NCBI GenBank assembly: GCA_044340745.1
Contig: JBIISZ010000005.1
Span: forward strand, 795 to 64,794
Reading direction: 5' to 3'
From: Candidatus Saccharimonadales bacterium
GTDB lineage: Bacteria; Patescibacteriota; Saccharimonadia; Saccharimonadales; Saccharimonadaceae
Length of the DNA stretch: 64,000 nucleotides
In this document: positions 49,265-57,885 of the stretch, one piece after another
Layout of the letters: every line of letters begins with the position of its first letter
How positions within the stretch are numbered: the stretch's first letter is position 1
The notes under the pieces: generated by a model
Seen by the model: only the letters and a program-made list of their open reading frames with translations
Told to the model about the DNA's origin: nothing
The model's database searches: none
Translations under genes and position numbers: made by a program

Positions 49265-49936
49265 CTACGTTTTGATTTCAACACCGCCAAGAATGGCGCT
49301 CCCGGTCAATATGAGCACCGGACCTTTGTGGCTGTCATCACCTTGTGATTTATTCTCTACACCACCGGCGATAGGGGCGACTTTCGAGACGACTTTCCAG
49401 TCACGAGGGACACGGATTTCAATACCACCGAACAGGGCGAATACGTCAAGGGTGGCTTCTTTTTTAATTTTAGCGTCCCGTAGGTCAAGCATGGCACCGC
49501 CGAAGATGGCAGTCACTTTACCACCTTGGTAGTCATCGGATTTGTTCACTGTTTCTGAGCCACTGAATAATACGGAGATATCATCGGCATGGTGGGTGGT
49601 AGTTGGAACCTTGCTGCGGTTCTTGTGCCCGATGAGTACGGAAAGCCCGACGGCTACCAATACGACCGGAACGATCAGCTCGAATACGCTGAATTCAACC
49701 AACGAGTGGTTTTTGAGCAGGAGTAATCCACCGACGATAACCAACGCCAAGGCCCAGATGTAGTTGCGCCGTGCATCGTTTGCGAAAGTAATAACCCCAC
49801 CGATAATAATGAGGGCTGGCCACCAAGTACTGAAGTAGCCCCAGAACGAAATGACGTTCAGGGTGTCCAGTAGGGCGCCGAGCCCGATGATGATAATGAG
49901 TATTCCGGTGACGTAGCGTGAGAGAGTCTGTTTCAT
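49265..49936 (-). CDS. LiaF/DUF2154-like membrane protein (cell-envelope stress family)
   Basis: Four N-terminal TM helices; FGGAMLDLRDA...ALFGGIEIRVP...GGVE...LGGVEIK beta-repeat C-terminus. Confidence 0.8.
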   Translation of the reverse strand: MKQTLSRYVTGILIIIIGLGALLDTLNVISFWGYFSTWWPALIIIGGVITFANDARRNYIWALALVIVGGLLLLKNHSLVEFSVFELIVPVVLVAVGLSVLIGHKNRSKVPTTTHHADDISVLFSGSETVNKSDDYQGGKVTAIFGGAMLDLRDAKIKKEATLDVFALFGGIEIRVPRDWKVVSKVAPIAGGVENKSQGDDSHKGPVLILTGSAILGGVEIKT

Positions 49937-50014
49937 GAGCCAAGTATAGCATATTGACATTTTATTAAGTTTATGCTTAAATAGAAATATAACTAATTAA
50001 AACAAAAAGTGTAT

Positions 50015-50212
50015 ATGTCATTATTCAGCTACCTACAATTACAACCCATTGATCCGCAGGATGACGGCACTACCAGTGACCTTGATACCTTCGATGAAGA
50101 TGAGACAATCGACCTTACTCAGGATGCCGACGGGGAAGAACTCATCCATGAATGGGAACAGATCGAACGCGACCTCCATGATTCAGCCGGTATCGCTGAC
50201 CATGACGCGTAG
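50015..50212 (+). CDS. Small very acidic hypothetical protein
   Basis: 65-67-aa ORF downstream of TTGACA-17-TTAAAT (49954-82). Confidence 0.5.
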   Translation: MSLFSYLQLQPIDPQDDGTTSDLDTFDEDETIDLTQDADGEELIHEWEQIERDLHDSAGIADHDA

Positions 50213-50247
50213 CAGTGTTTCACGGAATACGCTATACTAAGTAAAGT

Positions 50248-50637
50248 ATGAATATCTCTAATGAAGCGTTTGATGCCCTCGTGACGAAGGCGATGGACGA
50301 CTTGCCGCAAGAATATATAACCGGCCTAGAAAACGTGGCTATTTTGTATGCCGATGCCCCTGATGGGTACCAGGTTGAAAAGTCTGAACTCCATGAAGGC
50401 GGGCTATTGTTAGGGTTGTACGAAGGGATCCCGTTAACGAGCAGGGGAGCGGGGTATACGTTCGTGCTGCCTGATAAGATCACCTTATTTAAAGATGCCC
50501 TCCTTACTATATCGCGTACGCCGGAAGAATTATTTGAGAATGTAAAGCGCACTCTATGGCATGAGATCGCTCATTATTACGGGCTCGACCATGATCGGAT
50601 CGACTTCCTGGAGCAACGTGGGCCACTTCCATCATAA
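50248..50637 (+). CDS. Zincin-like metallopeptidase (DUF1025 type)
   Basis: LLGLYEGIPLT...LPDKITLF...TLWHEIAHYYG. Confidence 0.85.
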   Translation: MNISNEAFDALVTKAMDDLPQEYITGLENVAILYADAPDGYQVEKSELHEGGLLLGLYEGIPLTSRGAGYTFVLPDKITLFKDALLTISRTPEELFENVKRTLWHEIAHYYGLDHDRIDFLEQRGPLPS

Positions 50638-50765
50638 GCTTGGCTCGTAGCGCCTTTAATCCGCTCATGCTATACTAGAGGCACGTTCAGTATATAGCGA
50701 GCCGATGCGAGGGGGTCAATATAAAAACCGGAACGGGAAGTGTTTCTAGCTACGCGGTAAAAGCC

Positions 50766-51380
50766 TTGGTGTTTTTATGCGCCGTGCTATCGTTCGCATC
50801 AGTATTTGCACTTATTTCCTCTCGGCAAGCTTCTGCCGAGAGTTTCTTATTACAGACGGTCCGCTGTACGGTTCGGACGCTACTGGCGGCGGAATGTGTG
50901 AAGCCTGGCGCTGGTTCTGTCACGCCTGTATCACCAAGTACAGCACCGAGCCAGACGGCCGCACCGGCACCTTCGCCGGAGCAATCTATGAATACTCAGG
51001 CCGCTCCGCCTGCGCAGCAGCCGGTTCAAGGAGGGGCGGGGGTGGCGGGTTCGTCACCTACAGTAGGTATCCAAGGGATGTCCCCGTTGACCCCTGAAGA
51101 AGCGGGCGTGCAGGAAGTAGAGCGCCCGGTAGCAACTCAAATGCTTCATACCTATGCAGGACCGTCTATACAGCTTGCTGCTATGCCGTTAGAGGCGTTC
51201 GGCGCTCGATCGGTCGCTGAATCGAGCCCGGTACTCGCGACTACCGAGGGGTGGCATATCTTTGGCATCGCTTGGTATTGGGTGCTCCTACTGGGCGGGG
51301 CAATAACAGGGGTGGTATTGTTGTTTCGGCGGGATATATTTAAGAATTCTTTCAGTGTTGTCAAAAGGGAGGCGCGGTGA
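50766..51380 (+). CDS. Exported Pro/Ala/Gln-rich protein with a C-terminal FGIAWYW-TM anchor
   Basis: Signal-like N-terminus, low-complexity linker, C-terminal TM helix plus basic tail; start uncertain (the frame is open from 50679). Confidence 0.65.
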   Translation: MVFLCAVLSFASVFALISSRQASAESFLLQTVRCTVRTLLAAECVKPGAGSVTPVSPSTAPSQTAAPAPSPEQSMNTQAAPPAQQPVQGGAGVAGSSPTVGIQGMSPLTPEEAGVQEVERPVATQMLHTYAGPSIQLAAMPLEAFGARSVAESSPVLATTEGWHIFGIAWYWVLLLGGAITGVVLLFRRDIFKNSFSVVKREAR

Positions 51381-51497
51381 TACAGTTAAGAAAAATACAA
51401 AAGTCAAAAGCAGATATTTTGTAATAACTAAGGTGATGCGAGGAAAATAGCCAGGTGGGACGAGCTATTTTCACACCGTACGTAAGGGGAGAGTTCC

Positions 51498-54308
51498 ATG
51501 AGAATAGCAGCTCGGGCGTGGGCGCTCGGTAAGAAAACCACATTGATTACCACAGCATTTGTTCTGGCAGTAAGTACTTTGACGGCAGCGGTGCCGTTTA
51601 TTTTGTCTCAGAGGGCGGGGGCAGCGCCGCTTGATGTTTGTGCGTCCGGTTGTGCGTACACTTCCATTCAAGAGGCTATCAACCTTGCGAATGCCGGCGA
51701 TACTATTTCTGTCGCATCAGGTGTATATAATGAAAAAATCGACGTCAACAAAGCTGTAAGCATTATCGGTGCTGGTGCTGCTACCACCCGTATTGTCGCC
51801 CCGACAGCTAACGATACAACCGTTAACTTTGGGTCGACTGGCGCAACGGTATCCGGCTTTACTATTACCCACGAGTATACGCAGGCTGAAAAAGATGCTT
51901 GGGACTTTAATAATATGGGGGTTAATTTTAACGGATCTGGTAACACGCTCTCTAATAGTACGGTGCTACACAACCGGAACGGTATCTATATTAATCAACG
52001 GACTTCTAATAAGATCATCAACAATGTGATTACGGATAACCGTACCGGTATACATTTCGCTGGAAACGTTAACGGGACGGTGGTCACGGGAAACACGGTG
52101 AGTAACAACTGGACGCTTGGACTTGTGTACTATGATATTTCCGGCACATCAGTTAACTTTAGTACACTAGCCGTTACGGGAAATACATTCACTGGAAACT
52201 GGTACAGCGAGATTCTCGTAAAAGACGCTCCAGGCGCTTCAGGGGTTCTTGATGTCGAGGGGAATACATTTACCGACACGCCAGTGACGTATTCCACGTC
52301 GGCTGACGCAAGCTTGAACGAACCTGGATTCGCGAGCCAGCGTCCTGTATCTTTCGGTGGTGCGGCGGTTGCCCCATCCACGCCGCTTCCAACCCTGCGT
52401 ATCTATAACAGCGCACCGGCGGCTACGATTAGCTACGATTCGACCGCACCTTCTGTTGCGGCGACTGCAAACGGTGTGGCGCTCCCAGAAAACCTTTCTA
52501 CGAGTCCGAAGACATATATCCGTGGTCAGGCTCAAACGACTTTCGTAGCACAGCTTACGGATAGCGGTAGTGCGCCAAGAGAAGCGTACATCGAATTCTT
52601 CCAGGCCAACTGGGATGGAAGCTACGGAAACTGGCGTAAGGATAACACCAGTGCGGGTGATGTCCGTTACGGAAGTGCACCGCAGCTCACTGTTGACACT
52701 TCTGCGTTGAACGGTCGCTACGGACTCAAGGTAGTGGCGAGCGACACGCTTGGCAATACGAAGACGACGTACCACTATTTCACTATCGATAATAAAGTTC
52801 CTACGGTAACGGTCAAGCCAGCAGGTTCTATCGTTGAAGGGTCTTCGTCTGATACTGGTCCATATACCTACGTAAGCTTTAAGCTTTTTGATGAAGACGG
52901 CAACCTTAAGGAAGTCGTGCTCAACGGAAATGTCTATGCACGCGGTGGAACGTGGAATGACTTGAACTGGTCGAATATTACCGCATCACACCTACAACAA
53001 GGCACTAACACGATTATCGTACGAGACTACGCAGGGAACGAGTCAAACGTAGAATTCGTATACGATACGGTCGGTCCAGTGGCACCGACGCTCACGACGC
53101 CTGATTGGTACGTCACGAGCGGTTTTGCGAAGACGCTTAGTTGGGCTGCGCCAGCTGATAACGATGTAGCGTACTACGAGTACGCAGAGTACAACAATAC
53201 TCCTCCAACTTCTGATGTGACTATACCGAGTTGGATGAAAGTCATCGCTGCGCCAAACACTACCACTACCGATACCGCTTGGCAGAGTAACGTGACGATC
53301 TACTGGCGTGTCCGCGCCGTGGATACGGCAGGGAATAAGGGTGCATGGAGCGAAACGAGGACTATCGTGTCTGACTATGTCGACCCTACGGCATCGGTCG
53401 GCACTGCGACGGTAAACGGTGACCAACTTAGCGTATCTGCAAGTGCAAGCGATGACCTATCTGGTGTTCAAAGCATTTCCATCGGCCTGTACGACCTTTC
53501 AGGAAATAAGATTGGTGACATCAGTAACCAGACGTTTACCGACCATGAATTGAACAAGACCGTCGATGTAGTTGGTTTCGACCTTGATGATCTCCCATTG
53601 AACCAAAACGGTACATTTGAAATCAGGGTGTCTGCAAGGGACTGGGCGAATAATGAATCAAATGTAGCCACTACTGAGATTAGCGTATTTGTCGATCGCG
53701 ATAGCCCGGAGGTGACGATTTCGAGCATCTCCACGACCGACACAACCCCGCTTCTTAGCGGCACCGTAGATGACGCCGACCCGAACACTACGGTCGTGGT
53801 CAGTATCGATGGAGAAGAGTTCACAGCAACCAACAATGGTGACGGCACCTGGAGCTACCAGGTATTGACGCCACTTACTCTGGGAACGTATGTGATTAGC
53901 GTTATAGCAGAAGATAGTAGAGTTAACGTAAGTAGCGTAGATAGCGGCACGCTTACAATCTTCGCCCCCGTCCTATCTACGACTGACGAGCCTGTCGTAG
54001 ATGAAACATCGACCGACGCTCAACCTCAAGATACTTCGACGGCGAACCTGCCATTAGCATTCGGCCCAGCTGCGAACTTTGCCGTACTCGGTACGACGAC
54101 GGACGTTCCTGCGGGCGATACCGAAGACACCGATCAAGACGTCCAAGGTGCCACGACGGACGACATCATCGCTCAGGCGCTTGATGCGACAAATAACACT
54201 GACGGTTCAGTGTTCGGGCTCGCTTGGTACTGGTGGTTGGCGATCATCGGCGGCGCTGCGGTGATCATCTGGGGTGTCGCTTCGGCGATCCGCGGTCGTC
54301 AGTCATAG
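51498..54308 (+). CDS. Surface protein: right-handed beta-helix (NosD/pectin-lyase-like) plus Ig-like/FN3-like domains and a C-terminal FGLAWYW-TM anchor
   Basis: YTSIQEAINLANAGDTISVASGVYNE, Asn-ladder repeats, DTTPLLSGTVDD...TWSY Ig-like domain. Confidence 0.82.
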   Translation: MRIAARAWALGKKTTLITTAFVLAVSTLTAAVPFILSQRAGAAPLDVCASGCAYTSIQEAINLANAGDTISVASGVYNEKIDVNKAVSIIGAGAATTRIVAPTANDTTVNFGSTGATVSGFTITHEYTQAEKDAWDFNNMGVNFNGSGNTLSNSTVLHNRNGIYINQRTSNKIINNVITDNRTGIHFAGNVNGTVVTGNTVSNNWTLGLVYYDISGTSVNFSTLAVTGNTFTGNWYSEILVKDAPGASGVLDVEGNTFTDTPVTYSTSADASLNEPGFASQRPVSFGGAAVAPSTPLPTLRIYNSAPAATISYDSTAPSVAATANGVALPENLSTSPKTYIRGQAQTTFVAQLTDSGSAPREAYIEFFQANWDGSYGNWRKDNTSAGDVRYGSAPQLTVDTSALNGRYGLKVVASDTLGNTKTTYHYFTIDNKVPTVTVKPAGSIVEGSSSDTGPYTYVSFKLFDEDGNLKEVVLNGNVYARGGTWNDLNWSNITASHLQQGTNTIIVRDYAGNESNVEFVYDTVGPVAPTLTTPDWYVTSGFAKTLSWAAPADNDVAYYEYAEYNNTPPTSDVTIPSWMKVIAAPNTTTTDTAWQSNVTIYWRVRAVDTAGNKGAWSETRTIVSDYVDPTASVGTATVNGDQLSVSASASDDLSGVQSISIGLYDLSGNKIGDISNQTFTDHELNKTVDVVGFDLDDLPLNQNGTFEIRVSARDWANNESNVATTEISVFVDRDSPEVTISSISTTDTTPLLSGTVDDADPNTTVVVSIDGEEFTATNNGDGTWSYQVLTPLTLGTYVISVIAEDSRVNVSSVDSGTLTIFAPVLSTTDEPVVDETSTDAQPQDTSTANLPLAFGPAANFAVLGTTTDVPAGDTEDTDQDVQGATTDDIIAQALDATNNTDGSVFGLAWYWWLAIIGGAAVIIWGVASAIRGRQS

Positions 54309-54326
54309 CGCGACGATGCTCATACT

Positions 54327-54356
54327 CAAAGCCCTTACGTTTGTAAGGGCTTTTTG
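54327..54356 (+). terminator. Intrinsic terminator
   Basis: AAAGCCCTTAC-GTTT-GTAAGGGCTTT followed by TT. Confidence 0.8.
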
Positions 54357-54372
54357 ATATACTTTAGGCACT

Positions 54373-55323
54373 GTGAAAACAAAACAAACAACAGGAAAAA
54401 AACGAGTGACCGCGGCAGCGAAGCGTCCGACGACGCTTTCGCGCAAGGTGGCGCATCACACGAAGAAACTTCTTGTGCCCCATAAGGCGAACGACTATCG
54501 GCCGCACTTGGTGCGCTTGCATGGGATTATCGCGGTACTCGGTATCGCATTGGTGGCGCAGGTTGCGTATACTTTGGCGGCTACGGGCACGTTCGGGGTC
54601 ATGGGGCGGGCGGCGGATATCTCTACCGTCGAACTGTTGACTGACACGAATGCGGAACGTGAGGCGCAGGGGCTACGTGCCCTTACATTGAACGACCAAC
54701 TAAGCCAAGCTGCCTACCTCAAGGGCCAGGATATGCTGGCGAATGACTATTGGGCGCACGTATCGCCTAGCGGTGTCGAGCCATGGAAGTGGTTTAGTGA
54801 TGCAGGATATAACTACAGTACGGCAGGTGAGAACTTAGCGAAGAACTACCCAGATGCCGAGGCGACGGTCGCCGCATGGATGAATTCCGAGACCCACCGG
54901 GCGAATATTCTCAACGATACGTATCAGGATGTTGGGTTCGCGGTCGTTGAGGGCGAGCTACAGGGCAAAGAGGCGACAGTGGTCGTTGCCTTGTACGGTG
55001 CACCGGTAACGGTCGCCGCGGTTGCCGAACAAGCGGTAAACCGGGTCCAACCGGCATTTTCCGCTTCGGCAGTATCTCAGAATTCGGATGGACCGCTGGA
55101 GTATTTCGGATCGGCAGTAGGGTCATTGAGCCCAGTGACGGTCATGACCCTTGGGCTGCTTGGGCTGGTGGCGATCGTGGGTGTATCTGCGCACCATTAC
55201 CGCGCGAAGTTACCGAAGGCGTGGAAGAAAAGTTGGCGTTTGCATCACGGGTTGTATACATTCCTCGGCATGATTAGCTTGGGCGTACTGGTGATTTTGG
55301 CTTCGGGAACCGGCCAACTCTAA
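54373..55323 (+). CDS. CAP/SCP domain membrane protein
   Basis: TNAERE...LSQAAYLKGQDM...YWAH...AGENLA...WMNSETHRANIL...VGFA. Confidence 0.9.
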   Translation: MKTKQTTGKKRVTAAAKRPTTLSRKVAHHTKKLLVPHKANDYRPHLVRLHGIIAVLGIALVAQVAYTLAATGTFGVMGRAADISTVELLTDTNAEREAQGLRALTLNDQLSQAAYLKGQDMLANDYWAHVSPSGVEPWKWFSDAGYNYSTAGENLAKNYPDAEATVAAWMNSETHRANILNDTYQDVGFAVVEGELQGKEATVVVALYGAPVTVAAVAEQAVNRVQPAFSASAVSQNSDGPLEYFGSAVGSLSPVTVMTLGLLGLVAIVGVSAHHYRAKLPKAWKKSWRLHHGLYTFLGMISLGVLVILASGTGQL

Positions 55324-55368
55324 ATATACGCATCCCGTAACCTTGAGCAGTATGCTATATTCATATAT

Positions 55369-57885
55369 ATGAATCGCGCGTATCGTGGGTTTACGCTAGT
55401 TGAGGTGCTCGTTGTCATAGTCGTCGTGGCTATACTTGCAACAATTGTTTCACTTGGATTGAACGGGTATTTGGCTCAAGGTCGTGACGCGCAGCGATCT
55501 TCTAGTATGGTATCGGTCAGTGAGGCATTGGAAAAATATTATGATGCCAACGGTGAGTACCCGGGATGTACGGCGATGTCGGCGTCGCCTTCGAACGTTG
55601 TTAAAAACACTTTGACCGGTGTAACTGAGGATCTGTTCGTCGACCCTCGCGATTCGGGGACCACAACTTCGATTACTTGTGACGACATCGAATCAGTATC
55701 GGGAAATAAATATCAGTACCGCGGTGATGGAAGCGAGACTTGTGCGACAGGCCAGGCGTGTCTTGCGTATACATTGCGTTATCGTGAAGAGCAAAGCGGC
55801 ACAATCAAAGAAATTGACAGCCGTCGGAAAGTATCTATTTCTACCTCTGGTATTCCTGACCTTGCGGCAAGCGGTACCGGCATTACCCGCATCACCACCA
55901 ACTGGAATATGGTGCCTAACTCTACAGGCTACCACCTGCAGGTGTCTTCAAATGCGAGCTTCAGTAGCCTTGTTGTAGACGAAACATATGAAGCATATTC
56001 TGAGGTGCTAACGGGCCTTGGGTACAATACGACATACTATCTTCGTATCCGTGCGGTGAGTTCAACCGGAAGTGGTAACTGGTCGCCGACGGTTACTGCG
56101 ACGACCCAGGCGTTGTCTGCTCCGACTGTCAGTGCATCAACGACTGGTATGACCTCATTGCGTGCGACGTGGGGATCGGTGAGTAGCGCGACCGGATATA
56201 CGGTTCAAATTGCGAGGAACACCGCATTTACGACTGAGTTACAGACGTTCACGGCAAGCGGCACGTCCCAGAACTTTAGCGGCCTCGATTACAACACAGC
56301 GTACTATATCCGTGTCCGGGCGGTTGCGAACAGCAATAACGGGCCATGGTCGGCAACGGTCACCAGAACGACGGACGACTTGGATCGTCCAACACTGAGC
56401 GCCAGCACCTCAAGCCTTACTTCTTTGAGTGCAAGCTGGACGGCGGTGCCAACTGCGACAAGTTATACCCTCGAACTATCGACAGTTAGTTCATTCAGTA
56501 CGATTACCCGTACAATCACCGCTACGACAACCTCAACCTCTATTACTGGCCTTAGCTACAATACGACATACTACCTTCGCGTGAAGGGCGTTTGGAGCGG
56601 CAACCAAGGGCCATGGTCGAACGTTGTAACCCGCTCAACGGATAGCCTTGATGCACCGACGGGCTTGTCGGCAACTGCGCTCTCGACCTCTTCTATCAGC
56701 GCGGACTGGGACGCTTCAGTAGGGGCCTCATCCTATCGCCTTGAGTGGTCCACTTCGAGTAGCTTCTCTTCTTTGACCGGCTCGGCGGAAGGTATCACTT
56801 CGACCGCACGCTCAGCGACCGGGTTAAGCTCTAATACGCTGTATTACTTCCGTGTGCGGGCTGTTTGGTCGGGAAATAGTGGTCCTTGGTCATCGGTCGC
56901 AAGCGCGCGGACCGACATGGCGAACCCGACAGGCACGACAATCACTGCGGCCATGAGCGGATCGAACGCGGTCGGCACCGCATCGGCATCGTGTGCGAAC
57001 GGGTCTCCACAGTACCAGATCCGTTATCGAAGCACGAACACCTCTACGATGGGCACATGGTCTTCATGGAGTTCTTGGACGGCGACGACGACAAGGAGTG
57101 TCGCGACTGCACAAGGCTACCAGTACGGCTTCCAGGTCCAGTCTCGTTGTATCTCAGGCTCTTACATAAGTGACACCGTGTCACCGACTACTGTAGCAAC
57201 GACGGTGCGCGCCTTTGCGGCACCTGGTGCACCGAGTGTTTCGGCAAGTACCTCAGGCGGTACGACAACCTTCACCCGAGGTGGCGTCACCTGTTCTGGA
57301 AATGGCACGGCCGAATATCGCTACCGACGCTCACGAGAGGGTGACTATTACAGCTATAGTGGTGCGACGACAGGGAATAGCGCCACGACCGACACAACGA
57401 GCCAAGGCTGGAATTATGGTATGAACTGGCAGGGGCGCTGTAAGAATATTTACAACACTGGTCCGTTTGGCAGTGAGGGGCGTGCGACGTATCTTCGACC
57501 TGTCGGTAGGCCGAATGGCTACAGTTTCAATATGTGGCGTGAATCATCAAGTGTAATTAAGGGTACTGTCTCAAACTCATGCGACACCGGCGCGACATTG
57601 TATGGATACTTCGACGTCTGGGCACCATCGAACTGGCCATGGGTTAACCCAAGTACTGGTACAAATGAGGGACGCTATGGTTGGCGTCGCGATAGCTACG
57701 GTTGGGTCGGAGGGCTTAACTACTGGGCGAATACCATAACGACCGGTGCTACGACGAGCAGGTCAGGGGGTATCCCTAGCGGCACCACATGGCGCGTCGC
57801 TGGGCATTACAAGTGTCAGAATATGACAACAGGTCGTAATAGCGGTGACTTTGTTTACGGGGAAAGTGGAGCCTACGGGTTCTAG
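55369..57885 (+). CDS. Prepilin-type protein with tandem fibronectin type III domains and a Cys/Trp-rich tip
   Basis: G|FTLVEVLVVIV; four clear FN3 repeats (W...Y...YYxRVRAV...GPWS) and two degenerate ones. Confidence 0.87.
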   Translation: MNRAYRGFTLVEVLVVIVVVAILATIVSLGLNGYLAQGRDAQRSSSMVSVSEALEKYYDANGEYPGCTAMSASPSNVVKNTLTGVTEDLFVDPRDSGTTTSITCDDIESVSGNKYQYRGDGSETCATGQACLAYTLRYREEQSGTIKEIDSRRKVSISTSGIPDLAASGTGITRITTNWNMVPNSTGYHLQVSSNASFSSLVVDETYEAYSEVLTGLGYNTTYYLRIRAVSSTGSGNWSPTVTATTQALSAPTVSASTTGMTSLRATWGSVSSATGYTVQIARNTAFTTELQTFTASGTSQNFSGLDYNTAYYIRVRAVANSNNGPWSATVTRTTDDLDRPTLSASTSSLTSLSASWTAVPTATSYTLELSTVSSFSTITRTITATTTSTSITGLSYNTTYYLRVKGVWSGNQGPWSNVVTRSTDSLDAPTGLSATALSTSSISADWDASVGASSYRLEWSTSSSFSSLTGSAEGITSTARSATGLSSNTLYYFRVRAVWSGNSGPWSSVASARTDMANPTGTTITAAMSGSNAVGTASASCANGSPQYQIRYRSTNTSTMGTWSSWSSWTATTTRSVATAQGYQYGFQVQSRCISGSYISDTVSPTTVATTVRAFAAPGAPSVSASTSGGTTTFTRGGVTCSGNGTAEYRYRRSREGDYYSYSGATTGNSATTDTTSQGWNYGMNWQGRCKNIYNTGPFGSEGRATYLRPVGRPNGYSFNMWRESSSVIKGTVSNSCDTGATLYGYFDVWAPSNWPWVNPSTGTNEGRYGWRRDSYGWVGGLNYWANTITTGATTSRSGGIPSGTTWRVAGHYKCQNMTTGRNSGDFVYGESGAYGF

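Follow-up and report, generated by a model that had tools for sequence, protein, structure and literature searches.

A stretch of 64,000 nt from the genome of a Candidatus Saccharimonadales bacterium (contig JBIISZ010000005.1, positions 795 to 64,794; hereafter, the window) encodes two adjacent, putative surface proteins that differ in their bodies and end in the same Trp-rich tail (hereafter, the WYWW tail). This tail is a real, undescribed, order-restricted C-terminal module: its anatomy is conserved, its position is strictly C-terminal, it is portable between unrelated proteins, none of the enzyme families tested correlates with it, and its distribution is concentrated in the family of the window, sporadic in the other families of the order and rare elsewhere. 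With about even confidence, we interpret the tail as a lineage-specific module that anchors proteins in the membrane by their C-terminus, can be moved between proteins and has a collar of Trp residues at the membrane interface; to arrive at this interpretation, we infer the topology of the tail, its retention in the mature protein and the adhesin role of its principal carrier.

The two tails of the window and the anatomy of the module

The small tail protein (50766–51380, + strand; 204 amino acids (aa) from a TTG start) has no Pfam or NCBIfam match and appears to consist of a signal peptide, a C-x10-C loop, a Pro/Ala/Gln-rich linker and the Trp-rich tail. The large tail protein (51498–54308, + strand; 936 aa), which is encoded 117 bp further downstream, matches the Pfam models Beta_helix (1.7e-14), Big_13 (2.2e-14) and NosD (1.2e-6), and is predicted to begin with a signal peptide and a head formed by a right-handed beta-helix, which are followed by a stalk of Ig-like (Big_13) domains, an acidic, Asp/Thr-rich linker and the tail. 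The signal peptides and the topology of both proteins were judged by eye from the sequence. No similarity was detectable between the bodies of the two proteins. The small protein ends with ...ATTE-GWHIFGIAWYWV-LLLGGAITGVVLLF-RRDIFKNSFSVVKREAR, where the juxtamembrane signature GWHIFGIAWYWV (51249–51284) is followed, at 51285–51377, by the transmembrane (TM) core LLLGGAITGVVLLF (51285–51326) and the basic, putatively cytoplasmic tail RRDIFKNSFSVVKREAR. The large protein ends with ...NNT-DGSVFGLAWYWW-LAIIGGAAVIIWGVASAI-RGRQS, which includes the juxtamembrane signature DGSVFGLAWYWW (54201–54236) and, at 54237–54305, the TM core LAIIGGAAVIIWGVASAI (54237–54290) with the basic end RGRQS; all these elements are on the + strand. 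Common to both C-termini is the signature [GD]-x-x-x-F-G-[IL]-A-W-Y-W-[WV], followed by a hydrophobic helix and a basic stretch. The original prediction, made from the letters of this DNA, had claimed a shared tail on two neighboring proteins with different bodies and a low-complexity linker ahead of each tail; all of this was borne out, with both tails located where they had been placed.

A side observation concerns the start of the small protein. Its reading frame continues without a stop ahead of the TTG at 50766, no ATG, GTG or TTG is present there (50640–50770), and the residues encoded upstream of the TTG (..YAVKALVF..) resemble the basic n-region of the small-protein orthologues (..ILRGAKTATFLL..). 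Translation therefore probably starts upstream of this TTG, at a non-canonical codon.

A chance match of the two tails is excluded. When the motif F-G-x-A-W-Y-W was back-translated into a DNA pattern, 8 of the 301 genomes of the class matched, compared with none for the reversed control, and every match in context was located 31–39 residues ahead of a stop codon. It could also be argued that the two tails were recently copied within this genome and that their resemblance is local, without wider meaning, given that the 0.92-Mb genome of the window holds just two strict copies, which are adjacent. However, the synonymous codons of the two tails differ, so that they are not recent copies of each other. 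Moreover, both orthologue groups retain the tail across genera, and public data contain 798 clusters with the tail, which is found in several families of the order and also on a cutinase-PKD protein encoded in an unlinked locus. Thus, the tail is not limited to two paralog-derived copies, and the reading as a local accident, to which we assign virtually no probability, is already refuted. A third candidate from the same genome, C6 (498 aa, ending in ..GVNWYFW-TM), is looser and was discarded; the tail profile does not recognize it.

The anatomy of the tail was derived from 193 distinct tails, numbered from a point eight residues ahead of the first Trp of WYW. The Trp at position 9 is invariant (193 of 193), and nearly the same holds for the Gly at position 6 (191), the Trp at positions 11 (191) and 12 (189) and the Tyr at position 10 (183). 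Position 5 is Phe or Leu in 181 tails (133 and 48, respectively), and position 8 is Ala in 168. The core between positions 12 and 24 is rich in Ala, Leu and Ile and leads to a second Trp at position 24 (151) and an Arg at position 31 (165). These column statistics confirm the predicted motif-TM-basic layout, that is, a signature, a helix and an Arg-rich end. Read in terms of topology, they would place aromatics where the helix enters and leaves the membrane, and the positive charge on the inner side. Ahead of the motif, two forms occur: D-G-[ST]-I-F-G, in the large protein of the window, and (E)-G-W-K-[IL]-F-G, in the small protein of the window and in many large proteins elsewhere. Both classes have pairs of small residues in the TM core (AA..AA/AG in large-class tails, GG..GG in small-class tails), and the ending S[IV]VK, predicted to be cytoplasmic, is common to the small-class orthologues. 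AlphaFold2, run on the tail alignment, modeled one continuous helix from residue 5 to residue 38 with a mean predicted local distance difference test score (pLDDT) of 80; the pLDDT of the first ten residues was 56, and a loop at the collar, such as is hinted at by the Cys variant described next, was not resolved.

Five of about 195 tails have Cys at positions 1 and 8 (C-x6-C); these five come from different families, and neither position is ever Cys singly. This paired change suggests that positions 1 and 8 are in contact, whereas the AlphaFold2 model is a straight helix. The five tails belong to loci L022 (G362), L079 (G425), L081 (G495), L083 (G280) and L134 (G083); examples are DCWRILGICWYWW, GCFEIFGICWYWW and CAQWFGVCWYWW. 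In L081, the gene that follows the tail carrier (6549–8396) encodes a protein of 615 aa that ends in ..RSCTNAFGVCKNLLLGFVGLASLIGLVVAVARRGSTN and has the Cys pair and FG, and no Trp cluster; its C-terminus is possibly a degenerate relative of the tail. Cys is no invariant part of the signature, as 189 of the 193 tails lack it.

Distribution of the tail and its carrier proteins

A profile hidden Markov model built from 11 tails was run on 151 genomes of the window's family, where it matched in 98 genomes at E<=1 and in about 51 at E<1e-4. Usually there is one strong match, and one carrier, per genome, and two where the small neighbor is present. A second profile, built from 57 sequences, was run on 401 genomes of the class and was positive in 58; 41 of these belong to the family of the window (including 12 of the 14 genomes of its genus) and 12 to other families of the order, and orders other than that of the window gave weak matches only. 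The peptide pattern [FL]G[LI]AWYWW, searched in 185,579 species represented by one genome each, yielded 27 confirmed loci, nearly all of them labeled Saccharibacteria; the nearest named relatives of the window's genome are labeled Candidatus Microsaccharimonas. Against 1.84 billion representative proteins, the tail profile found the 798 clusters mentioned above at E<=1e-3, 84 of them at E<=1e-10, far beyond the pair of the window, and in all 150 of the matches listed, the match ended no more than 12 residues from the C-terminus. Word-indexed protein searches with the tail region (about 50 residues against 5.8 billion proteins) returned 3, 1 and 8 matches; E values at this scale are too harsh for so short a query, and the length window excludes most carriers. 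The tail does not correspond to an existing family: no Pfam or NCBIfam model reached its cut-off on any tail, and the LPXTG, srtB and PVV-CTERM models stayed below cut-off and aligned to the TM part only. A full-text literature search revealed nothing relevant on the tail motif or on sorting signals in Saccharibacteria.

At least three unrelated bodies carry the tail, namely, the large family, the small Cys-loop protein and a cutinase-PKD protein. Two of them occur together in the genome of the window, and the third is found in genus g8; in most genomes, there is a single carrier. Most carriers belong to the large class, which is a hypervariable modular surface protein encoded in one conserved orthologous locus. 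The large carriers form one single-linkage network of modular, fast-diverging proteins: among 126 full-length representatives, no similarity could be detected between the central parts in 3,907 of the 7,875 pairs, and their tails are 58% identical on average. The heads are a beta-helix, a lamin-tail domain (LTD) or of unknown type, the stalks consist of Big_13 or Big_3_3 with a varying number of Ig-like repeats, and the N-terminal signal region is conserved as well. Relatives of the window's large protein bear an LTD or unknown head in combination with the same stalk and tail. To judge from its sequence, the large protein shows the pattern of a diversifying, cassette-like surface adhesin. Swapped heads were seen in relatives of the large protein (51498–54308) at loci L013, L015, L054, L060, L061, L067 and L071.

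An alignment of the small-carrier orthologues reveals a signal peptide, a conserved AE[SG][LF]L...C-x9-10-C segment, a linker and the tail. In genus g8 (G214 and G241), a 783-aa Cutinase (GYSQG)-PKD protein encoded beside an FtsK-like gene (L076, 5833–8184, in G214; L077, 4368–6719, in G241) ends in ...SFEIAWYWWLMITT...; it is possibly a surface-tethered esterase of an epibiont. In genome G223, the same locus contains a 385-aa Ig/PKD protein that bears the tail. In the other families of the order, the carriers are large and rich in Ig domains, and their genes occur in differing genomic contexts.

The canonical motif has been lost in some genera, and the syntenic large protein retains a Trp-rich segment ahead of the TM helix, for example, MTWVNVWTW, MIWLNWW or GIVNWW. 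Such altered forms fit physico-chemical anchoring better than a strict protease site. The variant tails of L088 (G398), L091 (G244), L092 (G251), L074 (G006) and L090 (G441), all in large proteins encoded upstream of the gene for a CAP-domain protein, consist of a hydrophobic segment, E..MTWVNVWTW (or MIWLNWW or GIVNWW), a last helix and a single Lys, and may form a two-helix hairpin.

The collar also exists without any carrier. In a phylum-wide scan, four genomes from other families of Patescibacteria were found to contain free-standing open reading frames (ORFs) of 30–32 aa that encode M-x-LG[LI]AWYWW-TM-KKK and nothing else. Two of these mini-ORFs, MELLGLAWYWWLAIVVVVGGGVYYFMNQKKK and MFLGLQWYWWLAIVVVVAAGVYYYMTKMRKKK, are located just upstream of a DUF2207 gene and beside rubrerythrin; a third example is MLGIAWYWWVLAIVVIVALLWILITQRKKQ. 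Similar ORFs of 48–50 aa are present in metagenome-assembled genomes of Lachnospiraceae and Oscillospiraceae (Clostridia), between genes for a histidine kinase and an ABC ATPase. The loci are L141 (G748), L143 (G847), L142 (G561), L066 (5995–6147) and L070 (about 4528–4674), and none of the mini-ORFs matched a Pfam or NCBIfam family. Because these mini-proteins have no passenger to sort, the collar has to act within the membrane protein or helix itself; judging from their sequences, this helix must be oriented N-out/C-in, as is proposed for the tail of the carriers.

Membrane anchor or cleaved sorting signal

Known C-terminal sorting signals share a standard tripartite layout (10.1101/2023.06.07.544157), which the tail matches in its signature, its TM helix, its Arg-rich cluster at the extreme C-terminus and its occurrence on proteins with putative signal peptides. 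The original prediction accordingly assumed a CTERM system specific to Saccharibacteria, with a sortase-like or rhomboid-like enzyme. To assess this possibility, candidate enzymes were compared between 28 tail-positive and 20 tail-negative high-quality genomes of the family (48 genomes); the families tested cover the enzyme classes known to process C-terminal sorting signals (10.1101/2023.06.07.544157; PMC11980579). Rhomboid (PF01694) was found in none of the 48 genomes, compared with all 14 control genomes. Exosortase/archaeosortase (PF09721) was also absent from all 48 above cut-off, and three weak sub-threshold matches included one in a tail-negative genome. Sortase (PF04203) is present in all 48 genomes, with a mean of 2.9 copies in those with the tail and 2.55 in those without it, and two tail-positive genomes (G080 and G192) have one sortase each. 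CPBP (PF02517) is likewise present in all 48, mostly as a single copy, with or without the tail, and does not adjoin the tail locus. There is no sortase gene near the locus and no enzyme gene in it. Altogether, five candidate families and both conserved neighbors of the carriers were tested for a cognate enzyme, and none of them tracks the tail. Thus, the predicted system stood in part: the signature is C-terminal and lineage-restricted, occurs on unrelated bodies and belongs to no curated family, whereas the dedicated enzyme found no support among the families tested. Nor is the tail a many-substrate signal, with only one or two carriers per genome.

A comparison with the established systems leads to the same distinction between layout and enzyme. 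The tail resembles LPXTG/sortase substrates in having a C-terminal signature, a helix and a basic cluster on secreted surface proteins with a low-complexity linker, and sortases and true LPxTG tails coexist with it in the same genomes. However, it reads FG[IL]AWYW and contains no LPxTG-type, NPQTN, LAxTG or QVPTGV pentapeptide; neither the presence nor the copy number of sortases tracks it. The models TIGR01167, TIGR03063 and TIGR03065 aligned to the TM part of the tails only, with E values of 0.02–0.2, below their cut-offs. With PEP-CTERM/exosortase, PGF-CTERM/archaeosortase and GlyGly-CTERM/rhombosortase, the tail shares the tripartite layout, the Arg-rich end and a lineage-restricted signature, but it has no PEP, PGF or GlyGly motif, and the corresponding enzymes, PF09721 (above cut-off) and PF01694, were found in none of the 48 genomes. 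These three systems usually have many substrates per genome. MYXO-CTERM with the CPBP myxosortases (10.1101/2023.06.07.544157; PMC11980579) is similar in its tripartite tail, and every genome examined here encodes one CPBP (Rce1-like) protease. In contrast to that system, the WYWW tail has no invariant Cys. The CPBP gene does not adjoin the locus, and because genomes without the tail have it just as regularly, its distribution does not discriminate.

The other relevant comparison is with ordinary type I stop-transfer anchors, which are N-out/C-in helices with Trp and Tyr at the interfaces and Arg and Lys inside, and which require no processing. According to the column statistics and the AlphaFold2 helix, the tail would likewise be a single C-terminal hydrophobic helix with interfacial aromatics and cytoplasmic positive charge. 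It differs in that its outer collar, of 7–8 residues, is near-invariant across hundreds of proteins that otherwise do not align, and it recurs in the mini-proteins. As a lead only, viral fusion proteins have Trp-rich membrane-proximal external regions, in which several Trp residues lie directly on the outer side of the TM helix, in a surface protein that makes contact with another cell; the tail has no sequence relationship to these regions, and there is no evidence here of a membrane-active function.

In the anchor reading, Sec export via the N-terminal signal peptide would precede anchoring, the last approximately 35 residues would stop transfer and remain in the cytoplasmic membrane as an N-out/C-in helix, and the near-invariant G-x-A-W-Y-W-W collar would lie at the outer membrane interface. 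The inner end would be fixed by a second Trp pair and the Arg cluster, and the acidic or Pro-rich linker would carry the extracellular body through the wall. The module would thus tether a fast-evolving, modular, adhesin-like protein and, in some genera, its small Cys-loop neighbor, as well as other exoproteins, such as the cutinase-PKD protein, on occasion; no dedicated processing enzyme would be needed. This reading is based on the C-terminal layout, the single helix with aromatics at its boundaries and positive charge at its inner end, the failure to find a cognate enzyme, the existence of tail-only mini-proteins and the one or two carriers per genome, mostly from one locus.

Several points weigh against an anchor. 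Cleaved sorting signals have precisely this tripartite layout, a simple anchor would not need so invariant a signature, and, like sorting domains, the tail has moved onto unrelated bodies. Every genome encodes sortases and one CPBP protease, so that processing by a housekeeping enzyme is possible. Furthermore, the reduced genomes hold very few LPxTG substrates, one or two, so that the low number of tail substrates is weak evidence, and the topology and the signal peptides rest on reading by eye. Conservation of the TM and cytoplasmic part was considered as a sign that the tail is retained, and this argument was dropped after a matched control, the LPxTG protein of the genome (G000, contig C18; 521 aa, ending in ...ELPTTGPAENMIFAGIVFAIVVFFYYRSKQLGTEVRLIRRDINGGTI) and its orthologues (L095–L120). 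Compared over the same set of 23 genomes, the stretch of 24 residues that follows LPxTG has a mean identity of 67%, and the stretch of 21 residues that follows WYWW has one of 39%. Because the region is more conserved after LPxTG than after WYWW, conservation says nothing about cleavage. As an aside, the post-motif region of this LPxTG protein, PxENMIFAGIVLAVVTYFYxRSRQLGKEVRLIRRDLNxGTI, is unusually long, and it is conserved beyond what would be expected for a discarded sorting peptide.

Accordingly, the tail could be a cleaved sorting signal, in which an enzyme recognizes G-x-A-W-Y-W-W and attaches or releases the passenger; candidates for this enzyme would be one of the housekeeping sortases, the only CPBP protease of the genome and a member of a new class. 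The standard layout (10.1101/2023.06.07.544157), the near-invariance of the signature and the C-terminal position in every match listed all agree with this possibility, as do the three or more unrelated bodies with a low-complexity linker ahead of the tail, and the local LPxTG system, which operates on equally few substrates in genomes that all encode sortases and CPBP. However, the genomes lack rhomboid and exosortase, those without the tail have sortase and CPBP just as regularly, the locus contains no enzyme gene and both its conserved neighbors are dispensable, the tail-only mini-proteins have nothing to sort, and most carriers derive from one orthologous locus. Weighing these observations, we regard cleavage as possible and rather unlikely. 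A bolder proposal, which we put forward as a speculation with a low chance of being correct, is that the WYWW tail represents a sixth kind of prokaryotic C-terminal sorting pathway, found only in Saccharimonadales, with an enzyme outside the sortase, exosortase, archaeosortase, rhombosortase and dedicated-CPBP classes, or that it is a membrane-active Trp collar at the contact with the host; either way, it would tether a hypervariable adhesin-like protein for host attachment.

Saccharibacteria spend their lives attached to other bacterial cells, and the ways in which they retain and expose surface proteins are little understood. The tail marks a fast-evolving, modular, adhesin-like protein in hundreds of lineages; with its approximately 40 residues, it is a simple sequence handle for such proteins in metagenomes and merits a curated domain model. 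Should the tail be cleaved, a new sorting pathway would exist in an organism that has neither rhomboid nor exosortase; should it be retained, it would be a well-defined natural anchor, usable for protein display on Saccharibacteria. The occurrence of the collar in mini-proteins from other phyla suggests that the start of N-out helices may follow a more general rule.

The tail locus and its conserved neighbors

In the family, the gene order is ileS, (LiaF-like), Zincin_1, (small), large and a CAP-domain protein with three TM helices, where the genes in parentheses are optional. In the window, the Zincin_1 gene (50248–50637, + strand) encodes a 129-aa putative metallopeptidase (PF06262; Pfam E=5.4e-24) with the motif HEIAHYYGLDH and no TM helix. 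The CAP-domain (PF00188/YkwD-like) gene (54373–55323, + strand), identified with both Pfam and NCBIfam, encodes a protein with one N-terminal and two C-terminal TM helices that ends with GTGQL. Promoter and terminator scans of 49900–55500 yielded sites no more numerous than in shuffled sequence and did not inform on the operon structure.

The CAP gene directly follows the large gene in 26 of the 27 distinct Saccharibacterial loci, and Zincin_1 is located upstream of the tail genes in most loci and after CAP in two. Within the family, the tail and full-length CAP occur together in 32 genomes, compared with about 6 with the tail alone and 7 with CAP alone; across the class, CAP homologues are present in 213 of the 401 genomes, beyond the range of the tail. 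Zincin_1 was found in 26 of the 28 tail-positive and 8 of the 20 tail-negative genomes. Both proteins were considered as an obligatory partner or enzyme of the tail and rejected, because there are tail-positive genomes without Zincin_1 (G205 and G282) and without CAP (G177 and G259). In addition, G196 and G261 have Zincin_1 and CAP side by side with no carrier. The co-occurrence of the tail and CAP is that of adjacent genes inherited or lost together, and neither neighbor is obligatory.

These data also bear on a third reading, in which the tail is an intramembrane assembly motif whose helix packs with itself, with the tail of the small protein or with the TM helices of CAP, resulting in a surface complex. 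Such a role would agree with the fact that the small gene adjoins the large one in the genus of the window and in some others, with the position of the three-TM CAP protein directly downstream and its frequent presence together with the tail, with the paired small residues in the TM cores of both classes, and with the Cys pair, which hints at a folded contact. However, in most genomes the large carrier is alone, the exceptions listed above separate CAP from the carriers in both directions, and neither the carriers in other families nor the cutinase carrier are encoded beside CAP. Furthermore, conservation in the TM helix is not significantly confined to one helical face (moment 0.083; 8% of shuffles reach this value, p ~0.08), and the co-occurrence concerns adjacent genes that are phylogenetically not independent. 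An assembly motif therefore appears quite improbable to us.

Several minor observations concern the neighbors. In the small-genome genera g3, g5 and g10 of the family (for example, G013, G134 and G122), tail carriers, full-length CAP-TM and Zincin_1 are absent together. The N-terminus of the CAP protein is basic and contains a conserved VPHKxNxYRPH motif, and its end, GGGQI/GTGQL, is conserved as well. A shorter type of CAP paralogue, which lacks the C-terminal helices, is common in the class.

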